A DNA stretch of 64,000 nt, from sequence record LC494302.1; one strand, 5' to 3'. Position numbers and translations under genes: made by a program. The notes under the pieces are model-generated. The model searched no databases. It was not told where the DNA came from and was given only the letters and a program-made list of their open reading frames with translations. The stretch comes from Escherichia phage SP27. Below are positions 47,467-61,577 of the stretch, in pieces (positions within the stretch are counted from its first letter, which is position 1; each line of letters begins with the position of its first letter).

Positions 47467-47694
47467 ATGAAAGTAATTCAAGTTATGGTAGAAAAATACC
47501 AAACTGAAGATGGTCGTATTTTTGATTCAGCTAAACAAGCTGAACACCATGAACGTATTATTTCTGGTGCACGTAAAGTATGTCCTACATGTAATGGAAC
47601 ACAACAAGTACCGTCAGAAGATTACCGCAGCTTTTATGCTTGTCCACACTGTGATGGGAAAGGCTACGTAGAAAAACAAGAGGTATGGAAATGA
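47467..47694 (+). CDS. small zinc-ribbon protein
   Basis: CPTC ... CPHC cysteine pairs. Confidence 0.6.
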   Translation: MKVIQVMVEKYQTEDGRIFDSAKQAEHHERIISGARKVCPTCNGTQQVPSEDYRSFYACPHCDGKGYVEKQEVWK

Positions 47695-51941: not shown

Positions 51942-52346
51942 ATGAATATACGTTCAGTACGAATATTTTCATTTGTTGATATGAATAAAAAACACTCTTA
52001 TGTTTTTGAAAATGTCAATAAGTTAAATCCTCATACGGCAAAAATGATTGAAACCATGAAGAACTTGAGTTTACATATAGAAGTTTACTATCTTCATGAC
52101 GATTCTGTTTATGTATATGATGATGGATGGTATGACGGTGTGTTTTATGATGACATTAGCACTACTGCTGATTACTACTTTCTAGTGAGTAATCCACTAT
52201 TCAGTACTAAAACTTTGTTTGACATTACCGATACAAGCGTGTATGATACAAGTCATGTTGAGTTACTTAAGTTTGATCCAGTATTATTCAACAAAGAGAC
52301 GGCGTATTGGATGACTGATTTCTTTTCAAATATTCCAGTAAAATAG
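51942..52346 (+). CDS. hypothetical protein
   Basis: ATG 51942 after GGAG. Confidence 0.55.
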   Translation: MNIRSVRIFSFVDMNKKHSYVFENVNKLNPHTAKMIETMKNLSLHIEVYYLHDDSVYVYDDGWYDGVFYDDISTTADYYFLVSNPLFSTKTLFDITDTSVYDTSHVELLKFDPVLFNKETAYWMTDFFSNIPVK

Positions 52347-52348
52347 TT

Positions 52349-52376
52349 TGGACATTTTAAATCTTAGTGATATAAT
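52349..52376 (+). promoter_or_regulatory. sigma70-like promoter with extended -10
   Basis: TGGACA, 16-nt spacer, TG-n-TATAAT (52368-52376); 35 nt upstream of ClpP-like start. Confidence 0.5.
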
Positions 52377-52410
52377 ACTCACAACAACGAAATAATAGAG
52401 GAAATTAATA

Positions 52411-53106
52411 ATGGTTGAACAATTCATGTTTGGTGGTTATGCTAATGGCGAAGTACGTAACATTTCTATTCCTTACGTAGTTGAGAAAGTTAATGGTTCA
52501 GAACGTACATATGATCTAGCATCTCGTATGATGCAAGACCGTATCATTTTCCTTGATACTGATTTCAATGATCAAATGGCACATATCATCAAACAACAAT
52601 TGGTATGGTTAGACTCACAAGGTGATTCCCCTATTACATTCTACATTAGTTCACCGGGTGGTTCAGTACACGCAGGTTTGGGTATTGCAGACGTTGCTAA
52701 GTCTTGTATTTCGCCAATTCGCACTGTAGTAATGGGCTATGCAGCATCAATGGGTTGCTATACACAATCTGTTATTGGGACTAAAGGTTTCCGTTTAGGT
52801 GGTAAACGCTCATACTTCATGTGTCATCAAGTAAGTTCTGGTACACAAGGTCTAATTACAGACCAGAAGATTTCCCTACAACATTCTGATGCACTGAATA
52901 CATTGTTGACCAAAGAAATTGCAGAAGCTGTAGGTGTATCACATGAACAATTACTAAAAGATGCTGACCGCGATTTGTGGTTAAATGCAGAAGAAGCACT
53001 TGAATATGGTGAACATGGTTTCATTGATGGTATTATTCTTGGACCACGTAACGAAGAAGGCAAGTACTTAGTTAAGCGTCGCGGTGGTGTAGAAGAGTGG
53101 GTGTAA
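52411..53106 (+). CDS. clpP: ClpP-like serine protease subunit
   Basis: ClpP signature ERTYDLASRMMQDRIIFL, SPGGSV, MGYAASMG. Confidence 0.85.
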   Translation: MVEQFMFGGYANGEVRNISIPYVVEKVNGSERTYDLASRMMQDRIIFLDTDFNDQMAHIIKQQLVWLDSQGDSPITFYISSPGGSVHAGLGIADVAKSCISPIRTVVMGYAASMGCYTQSVIGTKGFRLGGKRSYFMCHQVSSGTQGLITDQKISLQHSDALNTLLTKEIAEAVGVSHEQLLKDADRDLWLNAEEALEYGEHGFIDGIILGPRNEEGKYLVKRRGGVEEWV

Positions 53107-53154
53107 GATAGATTTTGATGCCTCAATATGGGGCATCATCTTTGTGGAGATTAT

Positions 53155-53445
53155 ATGAAAGTACTAGTACGTAATAATACGGAAGTAGCAAATGTATTAG
53201 AAGATTCCGATTTTATTAATGTTGCGTTCGATCAAATTAGTGCAGTAGCACTTGAATTAAAAAATGTAGATGAATCTGAGCGTGTGCTGAATGGTTTTGC
53301 AATTGTACTTGAATTAATGAAGGAAGTACTAATTAAAAAGAACATTAATCCAGTTGATGCGGTTCAACATGCAGAAGCTGTGCGTAAAGAACACGGTACA
53401 TTCTCTGACAAAAAATACATTCAAACTGATGAGGTAAAAGAATAA
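53155..53445 (+). CDS. hypothetical protein
   Basis: ATG 53155 after GGAGA (alternative ATG 53128). Confidence 0.55.
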   Translation: MKVLVRNNTEVANVLEDSDFINVAFDQISAVALELKNVDESERVLNGFAIVLELMKEVLIKKNINPVDAVQHAEAVRKEHGTFSDKKYIQTDEVKE

Positions 53446-53446
53446 T

Positions 53447-53893
53447 ATGTCCAATGCACAATATAAAGATGGTTATGACGCATACAAAGCAAAAGTAGTT
53501 CTAAGTGCTGAACAGCTAAAAATGCAGCATCCATTATATCGTCAGGGCTATCGTGCAGCACAAGCAGAAGCAATGAAGAAAAATAATGTAACTTTCCCTA
53601 CTACACTATATGATATTCCAAAACGTCCACACATTTTTAAAGCTGAATGGACTGATATTATGGCAGCGACAAAGCGTCCACGCTTTGCTAAATTACACAC
53701 CGATGAAGGTCGCTGGTTGCTAATGGGGATTATGAAAGCAGTTGAGAATCAATCTCATAAGATTGTTCGTTATAAAGATGTTGTTGCTATGGTTGATAAA
53801 GCATTTGACCTTGTACTTCAATATGGTTATGATGAAGGTGTTCTAACTGTTTCTGATTGTGAAAAATATCAGTACACCCCATATCAAAAATAA
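53447..53893 (+). CDS. hypothetical protein
   Basis: 148-aa ORF followed by terminator. Confidence 0.6.
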   Translation: MSNAQYKDGYDAYKAKVVLSAEQLKMQHPLYRQGYRAAQAEAMKKNNVTFPTTLYDIPKRPHIFKAEWTDIMAATKRPRFAKLHTDEGRWLLMGIMKAVENQSHKIVRYKDVVAMVDKAFDLVLQYGYDEGVLTVSDCEKYQYTPYQK

Positions 53894-53903
53894 TATTGTG
53901 AAA

Positions 53904-53935
53904 AGGAATCCTATCATGGGATTCCTATTTTTATT
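53904..53935 (+). terminator. intrinsic terminator
   Basis: 8-bp stem AGGAATCC/GGATTCCT, 7-nt loop, ATTTTTATT. Confidence 0.7.
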
Positions 53936-54019
53936 GCTGTATATCAATTTTCCATTGATCATATTTTGATCTATATGAGCTAAATACCCAAGGAATCATT
54001 GTTACTAGGGTAGGTGAAT

Positions 54020-54568
54020 ATGCAGCAATATAATTTAACTGAAGAACAAAGTGATATTTTTTACCATCATATGTTTTTAATTGATGAATTTGCTTTAAAA
54101 ATTAATTCTGAAGCAATTGATATATTGAAGAAATGGTATAGTTGTTATAATAAAAACAAAAAGTGGTATTGGTTTAATAGAAATATAAAATCATTTCTAA
54201 AAACAATCACATACACTGATAGTATTGAGTTAATACATAGTTCTATTGGATATAGTTACTTAACTAAACACAACAGTACTATGATGTTATCAGGGTTTAA
54301 AGTTGAAAGAATTTCCAAATTAACAGGTTTGTCATTAGAAACAATTCTATATGATATTGAGAAAATTTGGAAAACTATAGAATTAATGCATAAAAATATG
54401 TCATTCATATATAGAAATTATGATATATTCACTGATGTACGACAATATCATAATAAACCGTATGTATTGGATGAAAAGTACTATAATCATATGGAAGTTT
54501 GTTCTAAACTCGTTGATGATTGGAATCTAGAGGGACATAATGAAATACACACACCTAAGTATAGATGA
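54020..54568 (+). CDS. hypothetical protein
   Basis: 183-aa ORF from ATG 54020. Confidence 0.55.
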   Translation: MQQYNLTEEQSDIFYHHMFLIDEFALKINSEAIDILKKWYSCYNKNKKWYWFNRNIKSFLKTITYTDSIELIHSSIGYSYLTKHNSTMMLSGFKVERISKLTGLSLETILYDIEKIWKTIELMHKNMSFIYRNYDIFTDVRQYHNKPYVLDEKYYNHMEVCSKLVDDWNLEGHNEIHTPKYR

Positions 54569-55064
54569 TACTAATATCTGGTTAGATAACATAATCAAGA
54601 CATTAGAATTAATTAAACTTACATTACAAAAAACTACTGATATTGAAATTAATATTAAACAAGAAATATTAAACTATTATCATAGAAACAAATATAGCAC
54701 GTTTATCTCTAAATTAATTTATGGATTATATGATATTGAAGATATTTGCATCGGTTACAGTACTGGTATTTGCTTCACAGTTAATGGTTTAAAAAATGAT
54801 TTAAATTTCAGACTTTCCGATGAAGAGCAAGATTTTCGTAGATTTTGTGATAATATTATGGATACAGATAAAATTACATTTGTTATTGAATTAAATCAAA
54901 CGTGGTCTACATATGCAGATAAACCATTTGAAATTAATGAAACAGATGTGTTAAACTATATTCGAGTTATGAAAATTCATGATTTGTGTAAAAACGCATT
55001 GTTAAGTATTGGAGCTTATAATGAAACATACGACTTGGTTGAAGATAGCAGAAGTAGTTGCTGA
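54540..55064 (+). CDS. hypothetical protein
   Basis: 174-aa ORF. Confidence 0.55.
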   Translation: MKYTHLSIDDTNIWLDNIIKTLELIKLTLQKTTDIEINIKQEILNYYHRNKYSTFISKLIYGLYDIEDICIGYSTGICFTVNGLKNDLNFRLSDEEQDFRRFCDNIMDTDKITFVIELNQTWSTYADKPFEINETDVLNYIRVMKIHDLCKNALLSIGAYNETYDLVEDSRSSC

Positions 55065-55500
55065 GGAAAGTAAATGTATTTCACAAAAAGTTGGTTGTGT
55101 TATTGTTAAAAATAACCGAGTATTGAGTACTGGATACAATGGTACTCCATCAAAACAACCAAATTGTTGTGATGTGAATCAACACTTAGTCAATGATGGA
55201 CGTTTTCAAGACTGGGTTAGTGATGAAGCAAAGCATGAACATCATGAGTGGAGTAATATTCATGAAATCCATGCTGAAATGAACGCTTTACTCTATAGTT
55301 CTCCTACTGAACGTCAAGGTGCTACTCTTTACACAACACTACAACCATGTTATACTTGTTCTAAGTTGATCGCAGGTAGTGGGATTTCACGTGTAATTTA
55401 TCTCAAAAATTATCCTCGTACACCACCAGAAGCTATTAAAGTACTGGAAGATGCTGGAATTATTGTTAATTGCATTTATGATAAGGGTCTTGATAAATGA
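55021..55500 (+). CDS. cd: dCMP deaminase
   Basis: ATG 55021 after GGAG; zinc motifs HAEMNAL and PCYTCSKLI. Confidence 0.85.
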   Translation: MKHTTWLKIAEVVAEESKCISQKVGCVIVKNNRVLSTGYNGTPSKQPNCCDVNQHLVNDGRFQDWVSDEAKHEHHEWSNIHEIHAEMNALLYSSPTERQGATLYTTLQPCYTCSKLIAGSGISRVIYLKNYPRTPPEAIKVLEDAGIIVNCIYDKGLDK

Positions 55501-55754
55501 CAGTAATAATTATTATTGCTTTTCTAATAACAGTGTTTTTCATTTTTATGTTATATATAGTTGCTATGGATGAACCTAATACTTCTTTTCGAAATTATGA
55601 AGTTCGTTTTTCTGCACAAAATAATAAGTACTATATTGTAAACTGTATACACCGTAGTGAGAAAAGGGTAACAAGTAGATTTGGATTTACCATTTATTAT
55701 AAAGACCGAGTAGAAGCTGATATGATTTGTCAGAAGCTTAATACTGTAGAATAA
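55497..55754 (+). CDS. small membrane protein
   Basis: N-terminus MTVIIIIAFLITVFFIFMLYIVA; ATGA overlap with cd. Confidence 0.55.
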   Translation: MTVIIIIAFLITVFFIFMLYIVAMDEPNTSFRNYEVRFSAQNNKYYIVNCIHRSEKRVTSRFGFTIYYKDRVEADMICQKLNTVE

Positions 55755-55782
55755 AAAAAGGAGCCGTATGGCTCCTTTTTTT
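55753..55782. terminator. bidirectional intrinsic terminator
   Basis: A7-GGAGCC-GTAT-GGCTCC-T7, between convergent genes. Confidence 0.8.
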
Positions 55783-55783
55783 G

Positions 55784-56161
55784 TTAACCAGGGAGGTTAC
55801 AATAATACAAATCCCAAGGGTGATATTTCATCGCACCAGTACTCAATTTAATTTTATGAAACTGGAATGATTCGGCAAATGCACTATCGTCAATCTTAAT
55901 ACAAAAAGTGTTTTTGGCTAGAGTTGGTGCAATTTCCAATGCTGTTTTAGATGCATCTAATCTAATTTTATCTTTATCATAACTAGTGATAGTTACAAAA
56001 CGATAAACATTAAAATCAGTATCAATGAGATCGTAAACACAACTAGAACGTTGATTAAAGATGTTCAAGTTATATTTCAATTCACCGTTTATATTAGCTG
56101 CGGTTACACAAAACCCGCCGATATTGAATGGTAGTTTACCTTGTGCTGCGATAGCTTTCAT
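55784..56161 (-). CDS. hypothetical protein (only convincing minus-strand gene in window)
   Basis: 125-aa ORF in a gap free of plus-strand ORFs, convergent on the bidirectional terminator. Confidence 0.5.
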   Translation of the reverse strand: MKAIAAQGKLPFNIGGFCVTAANINGELKYNLNIFNQRSSCVYDLIDTDFNVYRFVTITSYDKDKIRLDASKTALEIAPTLAKNTFCIKIDDSAFAESFQFHKIKLSTGAMKYHPWDLYYCNLPG

Positions 56162-56386
56162 ATTTTATTTCCTTTTTTAAATATAAGTATGAAATATATT
56201 TGTTTTTTACATCAGATGCACCATGAACTAGTTGACAAAACATCAGTGGTATGATATGATCTGTTATAAACTGTACACCTTAAGTTTTATTTTTAAAAAT
56301 TTGAGTTAAGTACAGAAAAAGTTTGACTTAAGTGTTTAAGTACTATATTATTTATATCTTCCTAAACAAAATTGAGGACTTGTTAT

Positions 56387-56995
56387 ATGAAAAGACTATG
56401 GCTTGAAGTGATACAAGCAGCAATGTTTCTATTGTTAATAAATTTTCCAGCCAGTGCTGGTATTGAAAGTAAAAATGTGATAAAGTATAATCCTGAAACC
56501 CGAAATGTATATTTCATATCAGATATTACAGATGGGTCACTCAAGAGAATGATAGAGTTGTATGATAAAGAACACTATGATACCATCACAATTACATCTC
56601 CTGGTGGTGATTTTGATGCAGGTATTCGAATGGCAAACTTTGTTAGAGACAATGGGATAAATTTAATTGTTTCTAGGTATTGCAATTCAGCATGTACTGT
56701 GGTATTCTTTAGTGTATCTCCCGAAAAGCGATATATGACAAATCGCTCAGTACTGGGTCTTCATAACATTTCGATTAAAAGTAATGTTACTGATGGTGAT
56801 AATTCATTTGTGTCTGTAAGACAGCTATCAACTTTTACCGAAGAAATGGCAACAAAGGTAGGTTTCCTTTTTTCACTATATGCAGCAAATGGAATCCCAC
56901 CAGAAGTTCTATTTAGAGTTAGTCGTTCTCGTGGTGAAGATGTTGTAATATTAACAAAACCAGAACTGGTTTTTTACGGTTCAGTCAAACAATAA
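56387..56995 (+). CDS. secreted ClpP/S49-fold serine peptidase-like protein
   Basis: signal-peptide-like N-terminus ending ASAG; TSPGGDFDAG motif. Confidence 0.6.
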   Translation: MKRLWLEVIQAAMFLLLINFPASAGIESKNVIKYNPETRNVYFISDITDGSLKRMIELYDKEHYDTITITSPGGDFDAGIRMANFVRDNGINLIVSRYCNSACTVVFFSVSPEKRYMTNRSVLGLHNISIKSNVTDGDNSFVSVRQLSTFTEEMATKVGFLFSLYAANGIPPEVLFRVSRSRGEDVVILTKPELVFYGSVKQ

Positions 56996-57065
56996 AAATA
57001 ATTAAAATAACAGGATGATTATGATGTACTTCCTTTGTTATTAATTATATTGAGATTATATAACT

Positions 57066-57326
57066 ATGACAAACATCCAAAACTTGACATCTATTATTTT
57101 TTATGCTACTGTAGTAATGTATGCTACAGTTATTTTTCTAACAGTTTTCATTTACAAAGATTATCGTAATGGCTTTATTGATCCAACTACAATGAAGTTC
57201 AATTCAAAATTCGAAGCAATAATTTATTATGTACTATCAACTTCATACTTGGTGTGCCTAATGTTGTTAGGAGCACTAATTTATATCTTATACACAACAT
57301 TATTTGCAATTGGAGCTATTTTATGA
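57066..57326 (+). CDS. small membrane protein
   Basis: 86 aa, three hydrophobic segments; ATGA overlap with next gene. Confidence 0.55.
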   Translation: MTNIQNLTSIIFYATVVMYATVIFLTVFIYKDYRNGFIDPTTMKFNSKFEAIIYYVLSTSYLVCLMLLGALIYILYTTLFAIGAIL

Positions 57327-57916
57327 CCTGTATTATTGCACACACTGACGGAGTAAGTTCTTTTATTGCTGGCGATAAGTTAGGAAGCAATGGATTTACA
57401 AAAACTGTTCAAACTGAGCCAAAGGTATTCGAGAAAGAATTTATCAAGTTACATGATGATGGACTAACTAGAACTAAAGAAGTAATGGCATTGGGTTATA
57501 CTACATCATTTCGTATGGGTCAGTTGTTAAATTATAACCTTAATTTACCTGAACAAGCTGCTGGTCAAACATTTTCACAATATTTGGTTCTTAAAGTTAT
57601 TCCAATCATTCGTCAAATGTTTAAAGAAGAATGGGGTTCACGAGATGCATCACAAGATGTAGGTGGTGGACAATTTATCATTCTCCACAATCATACAATC
57701 TATGAAGTTCAAGAAGACTTTTCAGTACTACAACCTAAAACAAGAATTACCGCAGTAGGTAGTGGGACATATCATGCAATTGCAGCAATGCAAGCATATA
57801 TTGAAGTTGAGAACGAATCTAAAAAACCACTACACGAACGTATCAAATCAATTTTTAAAATTGTTAGTGATAATGTAACAAGCGTAAGCGAAGAGTTTGA
57901 TGTTTTAAAATATTAA
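57323..57916 (+). CDS. HslV/proteasome beta-like Ntn hydrolase
   Basis: Thr at position 2 (MTCIIAHTDG..IAGD) and AVGSGTYHAIAAMQAY resemble HslV TTIV..IAGD and GSG..YA.AAA segments. Confidence 0.7.
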   Translation: MTCIIAHTDGVSSFIAGDKLGSNGFTKTVQTEPKVFEKEFIKLHDDGLTRTKEVMALGYTTSFRMGQLLNYNLNLPEQAAGQTFSQYLVLKVIPIIRQMFKEEWGSRDASQDVGGGQFIILHNHTIYEVQEDFSVLQPKTRITAVGSGTYHAIAAMQAYIEVENESKKPLHERIKSIFKIVSDNVTSVSEEFDVLKY

Positions 57917-57943
57917 AAGTACTAATATTATAAGAGAGAATAG

Positions 57944-58138
57944 ATGATGGCATACACAATTTATGAATGGGTTTTGAGTTTTTTTATAGTTTTTTCTATT
58001 GTTGTAATTTATAACAATGCTAAATGCTTATATAGGGACTTGAAATCCAATGGTTATCACAAAGATAATAATTTTATGTATGCCTATCATATTGGAATCA
58101 TTCTGTTATTATCAATATATTTAATTGTTTTTTTATAA
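57944..58138 (+). CDS. small membrane protein
   Basis: 64 aa, two hydrophobic segments. Confidence 0.5.
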   Translation: MMAYTIYEWVLSFFIVFSIVVIYNNAKCLYRDLKSNGYHKDNNFMYAYHIGIILLLSIYLIVFL

Positions 58139-58147
58139 GGATTGAAT

Positions 58148-58900
58148 ATGATATCAGAAAAATTTATAAGAAATGAAGGTAAAAAGCGATTACTGATTAT
58201 ATCAGGTGCAGGACTTTCTGTTGAAAGTGGTATGGAACCTTTTCGATTTGATGATGGTTTGTGGGATACATTTAAAATTAATGATGTATGTAACATTGCG
58301 AGTTTAACTACAAAATATCATGTTGTTCATTCTTTCTATAATACATTACGTGTAAAATTGGGACAATGCGAACCGAATGCAATGCATTATTTTATAAAAT
58401 CGTTAGAAGATCAATATGGTGATTGCTTCCTTCATATGACTTCTAACATGGACGATCTTTATACTCGTATTGGTGGTCATGAGCTTAAACTTCATGGAAA
58501 CTTGTGTGAAGTTATTGAAAATTATAGTATCAATTCCGATGATTATAATGTTATTAACTGCGGATACGAACCATACATACCAAAACATGATGTTTTTGCT
58601 AAACCAAATGTAGTAATGATTGGAGAATATCATCGTTATGTTGATGGTATTCGCTTACCAATTTACGAAGAACGAAATAATGTGTTGAAATCTCTTAATG
58701 AAAATGATACAGTTATTGTAATTGGTAGTAGCGATACAGTACTGGTATGGTCGAGATTAGCAGCAGCATTGCCATGTTATAGTGTTAATGTTAACATTCG
58801 TAAAAATGATAATGATTTTTTGTTTAATGAAAAAGTTATCAAGCCAGCAACCAAAGCAATACCGCATCTAGAGACTATAATTAAGGAACGTATGAAATGA
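58148..58900 (+). CDS. Sir2-like NAD-dependent protein (sirtuin family)
   Basis: GAGLSVESGMEPFR (Sir2 GAGISxxSGIPxFR), LHGN catalytic His motif, VIVIGSS. Confidence 0.7.
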   Translation: MISEKFIRNEGKKRLLIISGAGLSVESGMEPFRFDDGLWDTFKINDVCNIASLTTKYHVVHSFYNTLRVKLGQCEPNAMHYFIKSLEDQYGDCFLHMTSNMDDLYTRIGGHELKLHGNLCEVIENYSINSDDYNVINCGYEPYIPKHDVFAKPNVVMIGEYHRYVDGIRLPIYEERNNVLKSLNENDTVIVIGSSDTVLVWSRLAAALPCYSVNVNIRKNDNDFLFNEKVIKPATKAIPHLETIIKERMK

Positions 58901-59448
58901 GTGTTAAAGAAGTTCCCTTTGGTGAATATGGCACACGTGCAAATTTTGTATTTTGTTATTTCTTTGCAAGAAAATGCAACCCTTACAAAAACTATGAGTT
59001 GAATGATATACCAGAAGTAAATTTAGTATTACTGCAATTACGATGGGATGGTCTTCTTGGTGGATGTGGTGGAACCGTAGAAAGTACTGATATCTCACTA
59101 GAAGATGCGTTGCGTCGTGAAGTTCAAGAAGAAATGGATTACAATATTTTTGTTTCCCATCTTCGACCACTCAAAACTTTTGAAATTTACCCAGGTGCAA
59201 ACAGTCATAGTTTTAGCTATGAAGTGAGCTATGACGAGTTGAAACACATTAGAGATGGATACACTAATGCTAAACATGCAAGTGCAGAAGTTGCTGGTGT
59301 AAATTTATGTCATATTTCTCGTTATTCTAAGGGACAAAATCGAGAAGCGGGATATAATAATCTTATGACACAGAACTTCATCGGTACAGCAAAACAAGAA
59401 TTGGAGTATCTGGTTCAAAAAGAAAACTTACTAATTAGTTATCTATAG
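58897..59448 (+). CDS. Nudix hydrolase
   Basis: Nudix box GGTVESTDISLEDALRREVQEEMDY; ATGA overlap with Sir2-like gene. Confidence 0.8.
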   Translation: MSVKEVPFGEYGTRANFVFCYFFARKCNPYKNYELNDIPEVNLVLLQLRWDGLLGGCGGTVESTDISLEDALRREVQEEMDYNIFVSHLRPLKTFEIYPGANSHSFSYEVSYDELKHIRDGYTNAKHASAEVAGVNLCHISRYSKGQNREAGYNNLMTQNFIGTAKQELEYLVQKENLLISYL

Positions 59449-60077: not shown

Positions 60078-60137
60078 TAATCCGAGTCAATAACATTAGT
60101 CGAGTACAAGGATGTACTCATAACTCAAGGATGTTTT

Positions 60138-61577
60138 ATGAAAAAATATACAATTGACACAAACGTACTACTATCTGACCCTAATGCATCTATTGCTTTT
60201 GATGGTGCTACAATCATTCTACCATTTACAGTACTGGAAGAATTGGATTCAATTAAGAGTCGTAATGTAGATGTTTCACGCGATGCTCGTGTTGCTATTC
60301 GTAACATTGAAGCAATTATTGCAGATGCATCACATGATGAGATTAGTAGTACTGGTGTTAATATTGCTGATGTTCATACCAATATGAATCCTGATAGCAA
60401 ATTGTTTGTTATTACAAACGAAGAAGCTGAAGCACTAATTCGTACTAAAGGTTCAGAAGAGAAAGTTCAAACCCTTCTCAAAAGCACAGTACCTGATGAT
60501 AAAATCATTCTGGTAGCTTTAGCAACAGAATCAGTACTGGTAACTCGTGATATCAACATGCGTATCAAAGCACTAAGTTATGGTGTCGAGGTACAAGATT
60601 ATCGCCATGATATTGTTATTGGTGATAGTGATTTGATTCACATTGGTCAACACCATTTGGAAATTAATTTTTGGGAAGTATATAGCAACTTAACCAATAC
60701 TAATATTCAATCCGAACAAGTTGGTCGTCGTTTGTATCATTACATTTCTAAAAGCTTGATTGAACATTTGCTTCCACAAAATCTATGCATCGGTGATTAT
60801 CTATATGATGATGCAGACGTATTATTTGTGTACGAAGGTCAATCAGCAATTGAGGAAGATGATGGAACACTAACACCAGAAGATATTTTGGTATTCCAAG
60901 ATATTGGACAATCAGTAGCTTTACGTGCTAAAGTATGGGATATTAAAGCAAAGAATATCCAACAAGCACTCGCCATCAACAGTATTCTCGATCCTGATGT
61001 ACATCTAACAGTACTGCTAGGTTCTGCTGGTACTGGTAAAACACTAATTACGATTGCTACTGCATTAGAATTAGTACTGGAAAAACGTAAATACGACCGA
61101 ATCATCTTCTCTAAAACTCAAGACTCACAGTTTGAAGATATTGGTTTCTTGCCAGGTTCAGAAGCAGAAAAAGTGATTCCATTCTGTGGAGCCGCAATTG
61201 ACGCGTTAGAGTTTCTTCATAAAGATGATGCTAACCCACAAGGTAGTATTGAAGAGATTATGAAACGTAATGTTATTCAATTTAAAGCACTAAACTTTGT
61301 ACGTGGACGTTCATTCACCAACACTATTCTAGTAGTTGATGAATTCCAAAACATTACACCTGCACAAGCCAAAACAATCTTGACACGAGCAGGATTAAAC
61401 TGTAAAGTAGTAATTATGGGTAACTTGAGTCAGATTGACAGTAAGTTTATTAGTCCTGTTAACAGTGGTTTGACATATGTAACTGAGAAGTTTAAAGATT
61501 GGGCAGGTTGTCGTGTCATCGAACTAGAAGGTGTTGTTCGTTCACCACTTGCAGAATTTGCTGAAGAAAATATGTAA
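60138..61577 (+). CDS. phoH: PIN-domain PhoH-like ATPase
   Basis: N-terminal PIN-like YTIDTNVLL; Walker A GSAGTGKT; 479 aa. Confidence 0.85.
   Translation: MKKYTIDTNVLLSDPNASIAFDGATIILPFTVLEELDSIKSRNVDVSRDARVAIRNIEAIIADASHDEISSTGVNIADVHTNMNPDSKLFVITNEEAEALIRTKGSEEKVQTLLKSTVPDDKIILVALATESVLVTRDINMRIKALSYGVEVQDYRHDIVIGDSDLIHIGQHHLEINFWEVYSNLTNTNIQSEQVGRRLYHYISKSLIEHLLPQNLCIGDYLYDDADVLFVYEGQSAIEEDDGTLTPEDILVFQDIGQSVALRAKVWDIKAKNIQQALAINSILDPDVHLTVLLGSAGTGKTLITIATALELVLEKRKYDRIIFSKTQDSQFEDIGFLPGSEAEKVIPFCGAAIDALEFLHKDDANPQGSIEEIMKRNVIQFKALNFVRGRSFTNTILVVDEFQNITPAQAKTILTRAGLNCKVVIMGNLSQIDSKFISPVNSGLTYVTEKFKDWAGCRVIELEGVVRSPLAEFAEENM

Follow-up and report, generated by a model that had tools for sequence, protein, structure and literature searches.

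The stretch of DNA analyzed here comprises 64,000 nucleotides from Escherichia phage SP27 (LC494302.1; hereafter, the whole of this stretch is termed the window), and between positions 52,411 and 57,916 it encodes three putative proteases: a ClpP-family serine peptidase, a predicted exported serine protease of the ClpP fold, and an HslV-like threonine peptidase. The first and the last of these had been noticed in a first-pass annotation made from the letters of the sequence, and the list of open reading frames (ORFs) places both at the coordinates given there (52411-53106 and 57323-57916). The third ClpP-fold protease, which sits between the ClpP and HslV-like genes, was missed in that annotation. 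The principal features are as follows:

52411..53106, plus strand: ClpP-family serine peptidase, 231 residues (PF00574, NCBIfam models, alignments, and PDB matches)
56387..56995, plus strand: predicted exported serine protease of the ClpP fold, 202 residues from the ATG (PHROG 26024, family alignment, and structure model)
57066..57326, plus strand: small membrane protein, 86 residues, with three hydrophobic 19-residue windows of which the last two are contiguous (hydropathy scan)
57323..57916, plus strand: predicted HslV-like/proteasome-beta-like N-terminal nucleophile (Ntn) threonine peptidase, 197 residues (PHROG 1040, family profile, and structure model)

Positions 52000-58200 of the window share 99.8% identity with Escherichia phage PBECO4, and 21 records span at least 80% of this stretch. 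Over its full length, the window aligns with the PBECO4 reverse strand (125151 to 61291) and is 95-99.5% identical to it. By this similarity, the source phage is assigned to the PBECO4/121Q-type Asteriusvirus, a Rak2-like jumbo myovirus of ~350 kb, and is strictly speaking outside the T4-type phages. For searches of the rest of the SP27 genome, the near-identical PBECO4 RefSeq genome (NC_027364) was used as a stand-in, and ORF-level searches for ATPases were performed with phmmer against six-frame ORFs (those of at least 50 residues for PBECO4).

We interpret the region as a set of non-structural proteolysis genes, with a probability of roughly 0.6. Under this interpretation, ClpP would belong to the core of a phage ClpA-ClpP machine, possibly including ClpS, the HslV-like protein would be a peptidase of the branch that comprises HslV and the proteasome homologue BPH, and the third gene would supply an exported protease of the ClpP fold.

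The ClpP-like peptidase and a phage-encoded ClpA

The product of 52411-53106 matches the Pfam family CLP_protease (PF00574) with E=4e-41 and 141 bits (cut-off 20.2) over profile positions 2-179 of 182, as well as the NCBIfam ClpP models (E=2e-45, 155 bits), and its best PDB matches are cellular ClpPs throughout, with E down to 1e-36. The catalytic triad aligns with S111, H136, and D185 of the Escherichia coli protein, in the motifs GYAASMG, MCHQ, and DRD, and is invariant in 12 aligned sequences (E. coli ClpP and relatives). In the N-terminal axial region, E. coli and the phage clade likewise share an invariant Pro, Val, Glu, Arg, and Asp. The protein scores below the equivalog cut-offs for housekeeping ClpP (151.6 versus 308.6 bits for TIGR00493, and 155.2 versus 249 bits for PRK00277) and is ~36% identical to E. 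coli ClpP. The members of the phage clade share 60-75% mutual identity across Rak2-like phages and at most ~45% with cellular-type ClpPs, and they have a clade-specific C-terminal extension of ~20 residues. From its sequence, the gene is thus predicted to encode a full-length ClpP of a divergent phage clade with an intact triad, and the earlier description of a bona fide ClpP-like subunit holds on the strength of the Pfam score, the PDB matches, and the triad.

The same gene carries the product name "head maturation protease" in RefSeq (NC_027364 gp105 and NC_025447 gene 464), and its best PHROG match is phrog_94, "head maturation protease," with E=5e-44 over positions 56-262 of 622 only. In addition, virion mass spectrometry of phage CBB lists ClpP, by one peptide with 4.5% coverage (PMC5259590). 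These three observations would be explained if the ClpP-like protein were a head-maturation or otherwise particle-associated protease, an explanation that we consider very improbable given the evidence on the other side. PBECO4 gp520 matches Peptidase_S77 (E=1e-20; a T4 gp21-type prohead protease) and lies in a T4-like head module that also holds gp518 (major head protein), gp519, and gp523 (portal), ~225 kb from clpP on the PBECO4 linear map; phage phAPEC6 has the same head-module arrangement (gp225-230; PMC7247149). Among the 62 proteins detected by mass spectrometry in the phAPEC6 virion are the S77 protease and gp347, whereas ClpP (gp353c), the exported protease (gp346c), and the HslV-like protein (gp345c) are absent from that proteome (PMC7247149). 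On the NCBIfam model for ClpP-related head maturation proteases (NF045542), the SP27 protein reaches 51.3 bits, below the cut-off of 120, as against 155 on ClpP, and it has no scaffold or capsid fusion. The ClpP fold is common to the ClpP-related head proteases (PHROG 94, NF045542) and the SP27 ClpP, but the T4 gp21-type enzyme of this phage is a separate protein of the head module, and the SP27 clpP gene sits in an early/metabolic gene block with DNA ligase, dCMP deaminase, Sir2, Nudix, and PhoH as neighbors. The prohead protease of this phage is accordingly predicted to be the S77 enzyme gp520 beside the capsid gene and not ClpP, and the RefSeq label was probably transferred by name from PHROG 94, wrongly for this ClpP. 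Neither ClpP nor the HslV-like protein corresponds to the conventional prohead protease or scaffold; such a correspondence is what the first-pass annotation had named as refuting its proposal.

That annotation had also described both peptidases as orphans with no unfoldase gene in the window. For the window this stands: when E. coli ClpX, ClpA, HslU, and Lon, as well as the phage ClpA, served as phmmer queries, none of its six-frame ORFs scored better than E=0.4, and the Walker A pattern G..G.GK[ST] occurs, among window ORFs of at least 150 residues, in the polynucleotide kinase and PhoH only. For ClpP it does not extend to the genome, as PBECO4 encodes two candidate partners:

PBECO4 330788-333076, outside the window: ClpA homologue gp539, 762 residues (Pfam, phmmer, PDB matches, and motifs)
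PBECO4 249684-250229, outside the window: ClpS-domain protein gp457, 181 residues (Pfam PF02617)

The gp539 protein contains the Pfam domains AAA, AAA_lid_9, AAA_2, and ClpB_D2-small, and matches E. coli ClpA with E=4.6e-155 (phmmer). Its best PDB match is also ClpA (2.4e-180), in one stretch covering E. coli ClpA residues 20-734, and the PDB matches to ClpB and ClpC break in two, as is expected of a protein without the middle domain. In all five of the phage ClpA homologues compared, each of the two Walker A motifs lines up, as do the D2 Walker B motif and the two pore loops, KYR and GYVG. The ClpP-binding loops of Clp ATPases follow a hydrophobic-Gly-hydrophobic rule. At the position of the ClpA docking tripeptide IGL, the phage proteins have IGM (PBECO4), IGV (RaK2), LGM (CBB), IGV (a Vibrio jumbo phage), and IGF (a PA5oct-like phage), and by sequence all five fit this rule. 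The gp539 protein therefore combines the defining features of ClpA: two AAA+ modules, an N-domain, no middle domain, and a ClpP-docking loop. Of the ClpS-domain protein, gp457, all eight PDB matches at E≤1 are ClpS proteins.

In tblastn searches, ClpA and ClpP occur together and diverge in parallel in Asteriusvirus, RaK2/K64-1, CBB, Erwinia and Yersinia phages, Vibrio phage 2.275.O, PA5oct-like phages, and Atu_ph07, and on this evidence the two appear to be co-inherited throughout the Rak2-like supergroup. The simplest reading of these sequences is a phage ClpA-ClpP machine with a possible ClpS adaptor. The phage ClpP, presumably assembled in the usual barrel, would provide the peptidase core, the double-ring ClpA homologue would dock on it through its IGM loop, as the conservation of the motif suggests, and the ClpS-domain protein may retune the choice of substrates. 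Such a machine would act in cytoplasmic turnover during infection, either in the degradation of host or defense proteins or in the quality control of a very large phage proteome, and not in capsid maturation.

The first-pass annotation had suggested that the phage supplies proteolytic subunits which redirect host unfoldases, and, applied to ClpP, this would mean that the phage protein mainly captures host ClpX or ClpA and so redirects or titrates them. The N-terminal axial-loop residues and overall architecture shared with E. coli ClpP are compatible with such capture, host ATPases are available in every infected cell, and there is no ATPase gene near clpP. Against it, the same genome encodes a ClpA homologue with a docking tripeptide that is co-inherited with ClpP across the supergroup, and several residues of the docking pocket of E. 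coli ClpP are changed. With a ClpA homologue in the genome and its co-occurrence with ClpP, hijacking of a host ATPase is unnecessary to explain ClpP, and we consider it unlikely as the main function, although host capture and pairing with the phage ClpA are not mutually exclusive. The description as an orphan does hold for the HslV-like gene, which remains without a phage ATPase.

Several observations weigh against the preferred interpretation, a phage ClpA-ClpP(-ClpS) machine among non-structural proteolysis genes. Relative to E. coli ClpP, the phage protein carries the changes Y60T, F82S, F112L, and L114G, at positions which we take to be docking-pocket residues; with these residues changed, the geometry of ClpA-ClpP docking is not assured. 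The ClpS assignment of gp457 is marginal: its score to PF02617 (24.7 bits) is barely above the gathering score of 23, its match to E. coli ClpS has E=0.004 in phmmer, and its PDB matches are weak (E ~0.2; best 0.17 at PDB scale). The genes clpP, clpA, and clpS are dispersed, ~180-260 kb apart on the linear map, and form no operon. The single peptide in CBB virions is a weak hint of particle association. Lastly, the proposed partnerships are deduced from co-occurrence and motifs.

Four other PBECO4 proteins were considered and set aside. Three were candidates for a Clp/Hsl-like AAA+ protein: gp528 has a Rad50 zinc hook and adjoins a metallophosphoesterase, and is thus SbcC/gp46-like; gp484 is a DnaB-like helicase; and gp010 has only marginal AAA matches. 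The fourth, gp015, is annotated as "Hsp70" and, having no Pfam match, was not used. By annotation only, PBECO4 gp507 (outside the window) is a GroES-like co-chaperonin, and 121Q gene 457 (at window ~47467-47694) is a small DnaJ-like (J-domain-like) protein. Together with ClpA, ClpP, and ClpS, these two annotations suggest a broader chaperone/protease toolkit.

The HslV-like peptidase

The HslV-like protein begins with MTC, which puts Thr1 directly behind the initiator Met. Its PHROG match is to 1040, "peptidase HslV family," with E=4e-24; no Pfam family is matched above threshold. In 36 family sequences, with identities down to 26%, residues M1, T2, C3, D18, K34, G146, and G148 are invariant, and these correspond to Thr1, Asp17, Lys33, and the Gly-Ser-Gly of HslV numbering. 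Nearly all of the 150 best family matches align from residue 1, and the relatives are ~180 residues long. A profile of the family aligns end to end with HslV chains (E=8e-8), and its next-best matches are proteasome beta subunits and BPH. The AlphaFold model has a predicted local distance difference test (pLDDT) score of 92, and in Foldseek it matches HslV with E=6e-10 and template modeling (TM) scores of 0.62/0.70, and BPH with TM scores up to 0.69/0.72, at 14-22% identity to HslV. As modeled, the protein has the proteasome-beta/HslV fold, with both helix pairs present (predicted helices at residues 63-72, 84-104, 149-166, and 170-184). The proposal of an HslV/proteasome beta-like protein with Thr at position 2 is therefore upheld by the MTC start, PHROG 1040, the family profile, and the fold match, and the catalytic residues named for verification, Ser-His-Asp of ClpP and Thr1 of the HslV-like protein, are all kept. 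Thr1 would be exposed by removal of the initiator Met, with no propeptide, in what appears to be a large phage-borne branch of the HslV/BPH proteasome homologues.

Translational coupling of the gene to a small membrane protein had also been proposed, and the sequence agrees: the start codon at 57323 and the TGA stop codon of the upstream 86-residue protein share the sequence ATGA, GGAG lies 7 nt upstream, and the upstream protein contains the expected hydrophobic segments. A 4-nt overlap is also annotated between 121Q genes 474 and 475. Directly downstream of the HslV-like gene is a second such gene:

57944..58138, plus strand: second small membrane protein, 64 residues, with two hydrophobic segments (weak match to PHROG 18969, "membrane protein")

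Despite the shared fold, the sequence indicates that the SP27 protein is not an HslV orthologue. On the HslV equivalog models (TIGR03692/PRK05456), it reaches 19-20 bits where the cut-offs stand at 137-158, a result that also counts against placing it on the HslV/BPH branch. With E. coli HslV as the phmmer query, no HslV-like match was found at E<1 in the phage genome, and none in viral loci. It is only profile and fold methods that tie this family to HslV.

The family is widely distributed. The first-pass annotation knew of no HslV-like gene in T4-type phages; the source phage, however, is an Asteriusvirus, and among large virulent phages such genes are frequent, with 197 phage records that include T5-like Epseptimavirus, phages of Aeromonas, Vibrio, and further hosts, and Salicola phage SCTP-2. 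In total, 8,473 representatives at 50% identity match with E≤1e-3, 2,289 of them reaching 1e-30. Two adjacent members occur in Aeromonas phage 2L372X (genes 210 and 211), and some phages have up to three; two HslV-family genes have likewise been reported in Salmonella phage pSal-SNUABM-04. Hetero-oligomeric rings are a possibility where a phage has several such genes.

No dedicated ATPase accompanies the family in the loci searched. Homologues of HslU, ClpX, and Lon are absent from the PBECO4 six-frame ORFs, where such weak matches as occur are confined to the ClpA homologue. Among 80 IMG/VR loci with an HslV-like gene, none has HslU or ClpX within 10 kb, and one has Lon. When same-strand ORFs within 4 kb were clustered, no family recurred as a neighbor in more than 11 of these loci; the commonest (up to 11 of 80) were HD-domain, NAD-ligase, and Thg1-like genes from one sub-lineage. 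In the window, a PhoH gene lies ~2.2 kb downstream of the HslV-like gene, and PhoH was considered as a partner ATPase since it occurs nearby in the first four or five contexts inspected. This candidate was rejected, as PhoH is found within 10 kb in only 5 of the 80 IMG/VR loci, and its proximity reflects the shared synteny of one lineage. By these searches, the HslV-like gene appears to be genuinely without a partner in the phage genome, and in this respect the earlier description of an orphan chamber still applies to it.

With no HslU in the phage or in other viral loci, the HslV-like protein would act either alone, as BPH does, or on host HslU. In the latter case, it would dock on the host ATPase to form a hybrid protease of altered specificity, or would compete with host HslV. 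The closest solved relatives by profile are indeed HslV chains, and the segment after helix H2 is approximately of HslV rather than BPH length (HMMER alignment with Bacillus-type HslV chains), which counts against our interpretation insofar as the short form has been tied to HslU-regulated enzymes (Fuchs et al.; PMC8665760). This short segment argues somewhat against the autonomous option and gives some weight to host HslU. The hosts named for phages with the family are bacteria that presumably carry hslVU, which likewise favors docking on the host ATPase. On the opposite side, the equivalog models are missed by more than 100 bits, identity to HslV is just 14-22%, and similarity to the ATPase-independent BPH (TM 0.67-0.72) is at least as high. 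The position aligned with HslV Lys28, presumably a contact of the HslU C-terminus, is not conserved. Furthermore, an additional ~20-residue beta-hairpin, confidently modeled between strands S3 and S4 (residues ~36-55), could disturb the ring contacts. The equal similarity to BPH, combined with the lack of a conserved ATPase, gives weight to autonomous action, and we regard a partnership with host HslU as a real possibility, yet on balance somewhat unlikely.

The hairpin and one catalytic-site residue raise a different possibility, namely that the protein, instead of being a general protease, is an Ntn enzyme with a specific task (for instance, a ligase/transpeptidase of the connectase kind or an amidohydrolase) or a non-compartmentalized monomer. 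Connectase carries a specificity insertion at the same S3/S4 site, and many proteasome homologues, as Fuchs et al. stress, may not form rings (PMC8665760). Of the 36 family members, 6 give weak Pfam matches to the N-terminal domain of connectase, and all 36 have an invariant, unexplained Cys beside the catalytic Thr, at a position where HslV and the proteasome beta subunits have Thr. However, connectase is matched far less strongly, by profile and by fold alike, than are HslV, BPH, and the proteasome beta subunits, and most family members do not have the insertion: the hairpin is found in the nine closest relatives only (at least 51% identity) and is missing from the more distant rows of the family alignment. 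We therefore judge a specific or non-compartmentalized Ntn enzyme to be decidedly improbable, and retain the peptidase of the HslV/BPH branch as the preferred reading.

A more far-reaching view would join the two peptidases as separate proteolytic systems that either run isolated from those of the host or parasitize them: an orthogonal ClpA-ClpP-ClpS system aimed at host or defense proteins, and a phage-specific HslV-like class. Here, the IGM-type loop, the remodeled ClpP pocket, and the C-terminal tail of ClpP would constitute an orthogonal docking code that prevents mixing with host ClpXP and ClpAP. Judged from the sequences, this view is doubtful. If it were true, the HslV-like class, whether ATPase-free or commandeering host HslU, would represent a widespread and unstudied viral counter-measure or takeover device of jumbo and T5-like phages.

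Relation to known systems

All three genes had previously been annotated as proteases and are in this sense already recognized: the GenBank/RefSeq notes for 121Q give "protease (ClpP-like)" for genes 464 and 473, and "protease (ClpYQ-like)" for gene 475. A survey of jumbo phages (Iyer, Anantharaman, Krishnan, Burroughs and Aravind 2021; PMC7824862) described ClpP in some phages of groups 1 and 2.2, as well as phage ClpS, and ClpA or ClpX in subsets. That survey treats ClpP, ClpS, and ClpA as separate and patchy, supposing that ClpS feeds host ClpAP and that ClpA works as an assembly translocase, whereas here the three occur in one genome, ClpA and ClpP are co-inherited, and the docking loop is kept. 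The genome paper on Atu_ph07 noted that ClpA is conserved in most Rak2-like phages (PMC6102473), and a paper on Salmonella jumbo phages reported HslV genes without HslU. Phage-borne proteasome homologues (PPH, AAH, and CPH) were described by Fuchs, Alva and Lupas in 2021 (PMC8665760). In the literature, we found no functional study of the ClpP, HslV-like protein, or exported protease of these phages, nor of any phage HslV-like or "peptidase HslV family" protein. What the present analysis adds, at the level of sequence, is the putative set of ClpP, ClpA, and ClpS in one coliphage genome with a docking loop kept across the supergroup; it also adds a very large HslV-like family consistently without an ATPase neighbor, and the third ClpP-fold protease in the cluster.

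The phage set resembles E. coli ClpAPS in the ClpP fold family (MEROPS S14), the Ser-His-Asp triad, the N-terminal loop residues, a partner as long as ClpA that contains two AAA+ modules, and a ClpS-domain protein. It differs in the low ClpP identity (~36%), the C-terminal tail of ~20 residues, the changed pocket residues, and a docking tripeptide of IGM instead of IGL. Furthermore, the ClpS homologue is, at 181 residues, extended by a long N-terminal part, and the three genes are dispersed, with no operon of the host type. The HslV-like protein, in turn, shares with HslV its fold, the Thr1/Asp17/Lys33/Gly-Ser-Gly numbering, the lack of a long propeptide, and the post-H2 length, but there is no hslU adjacent to it or in the genome, an invariant Cys2 stands where HslV has Thr2, and its closest relatives have the S3/S4 hairpin. 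With PPH, AAH, CPH, and BPH it has in common a compact form, no propeptide, and the Thr1-Asp17-Lys33 core, and PPH, AAH, and CPH, like the SP27 family, are found in Caudovirales with no ATPase partner known (PMC8665760). It is not a PPH, which by description is ~140 residues long and without helix H2 (PMC8665760), as the SP27 protein has 197 residues and both helix pairs. The family is also far larger, with ~8,500 clusters at 50% identity, than AAH and PPH, for which 240-324 nr90 sequences are given (PMC8665760).

A coliphage that infects E. coli K-12 and O157 and encodes a ClpA/ClpP/ClpS set offers a setting in which the gain from possessing an AAA+ protease could be tested, the candidate gains being host takeover, anti-defense, and the quality control of a 550-gene proteome. 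To our knowledge, regulated proteolysis driven by phages is almost unstudied experimentally. For the HslV-like family, with its thousands of clusters (T5-like phages included), establishing in what oligomer, with which partner, and on which substrates its members work would close a gap in the picture of the proteasome family.

The exported protease and neighboring features

The ORF of the exported protease opens at TTG 56372, upstream of the ATG. The protein matches PHROG 26024, "protease," with E=4e-119, and its Pfam and NCBIfam ClpP matches are weak. A hydrophobic segment at residues 4-22 belongs to a signal-peptide-like N-terminus that ends in an invariant NFPASA, and the likewise invariant motifs TSPGGD, YCNS, and GLHN correspond to the oxyanion, Ser, and His positions of ClpP. 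The structure model (pLDDT 69) has ClpP as all of its best Foldseek matches, with E ~1e-6 and TM ~0.5. The family is small, with 13 clusters, and those of them that bear names come from E. coli assemblies or Asteriusvirus phages. For a phage to have an exported enzyme of the ClpP type is unusual; this one presumably acts in the cell envelope, and its target may be the host envelope or phage proteins.

The remaining features around the three protease genes are:

52349..52376, plus strand: candidate sigma-70-like promoter, TGGACA-16-TATAAT with an extended -10 (TG), 11 of 12 consensus positions
53116..53138, plus strand: candidate terminator-like hairpin with a 10-bp stem, 10 nt past the clpP stop codon
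55784-56161, minus strand: lone minus-strand gene for a 14-kDa protein, between the ClpP and exported-protease genes
58142-59448, plus strand: Sir2-family protein (Pfam E=4e-20), then a Nudix hydrolase, downstream of the HslV-like gene
~60081-61574, plus strand: PhoH-like ATPase, 479 residues, downstream of the HslV-like gene

The candidate promoter sits in the 64-nt gap 5' of clpP, where the first-pass annotation had assigned the gene a promoter of its own. A site of the right form is indeed present, but promoter-type matches in this AT-rich region are no commoner than in shuffled sequence (41 found versus 40.9 expected), and because of this equal frequency the site is taken as weak evidence and a candidate only. 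The T-tail of the hairpin past clpP is weak (TCTTTGTGGA), and this terminator too is a candidate only.

The minus-strand gene at 55784-56161 is surrounded by plus-strand early or metabolic genes. Its product is the virion component gp347 of phAPEC6, detected with 75% coverage (PMC7247149), and its 121Q counterpart is noted as "structural protein; Ig domain." The PhoH-like protein was also found in the phAPEC6 virion proteome (gp341c, 31% coverage; PMC7247149). Farther upstream, at window ~1-38000 (PBECO4 gp160-gp213), there is a same-strand series of hypothetical genes encoding ~120-200 residues each, with tight or overlapping junctions, which may be paralogous arrays.

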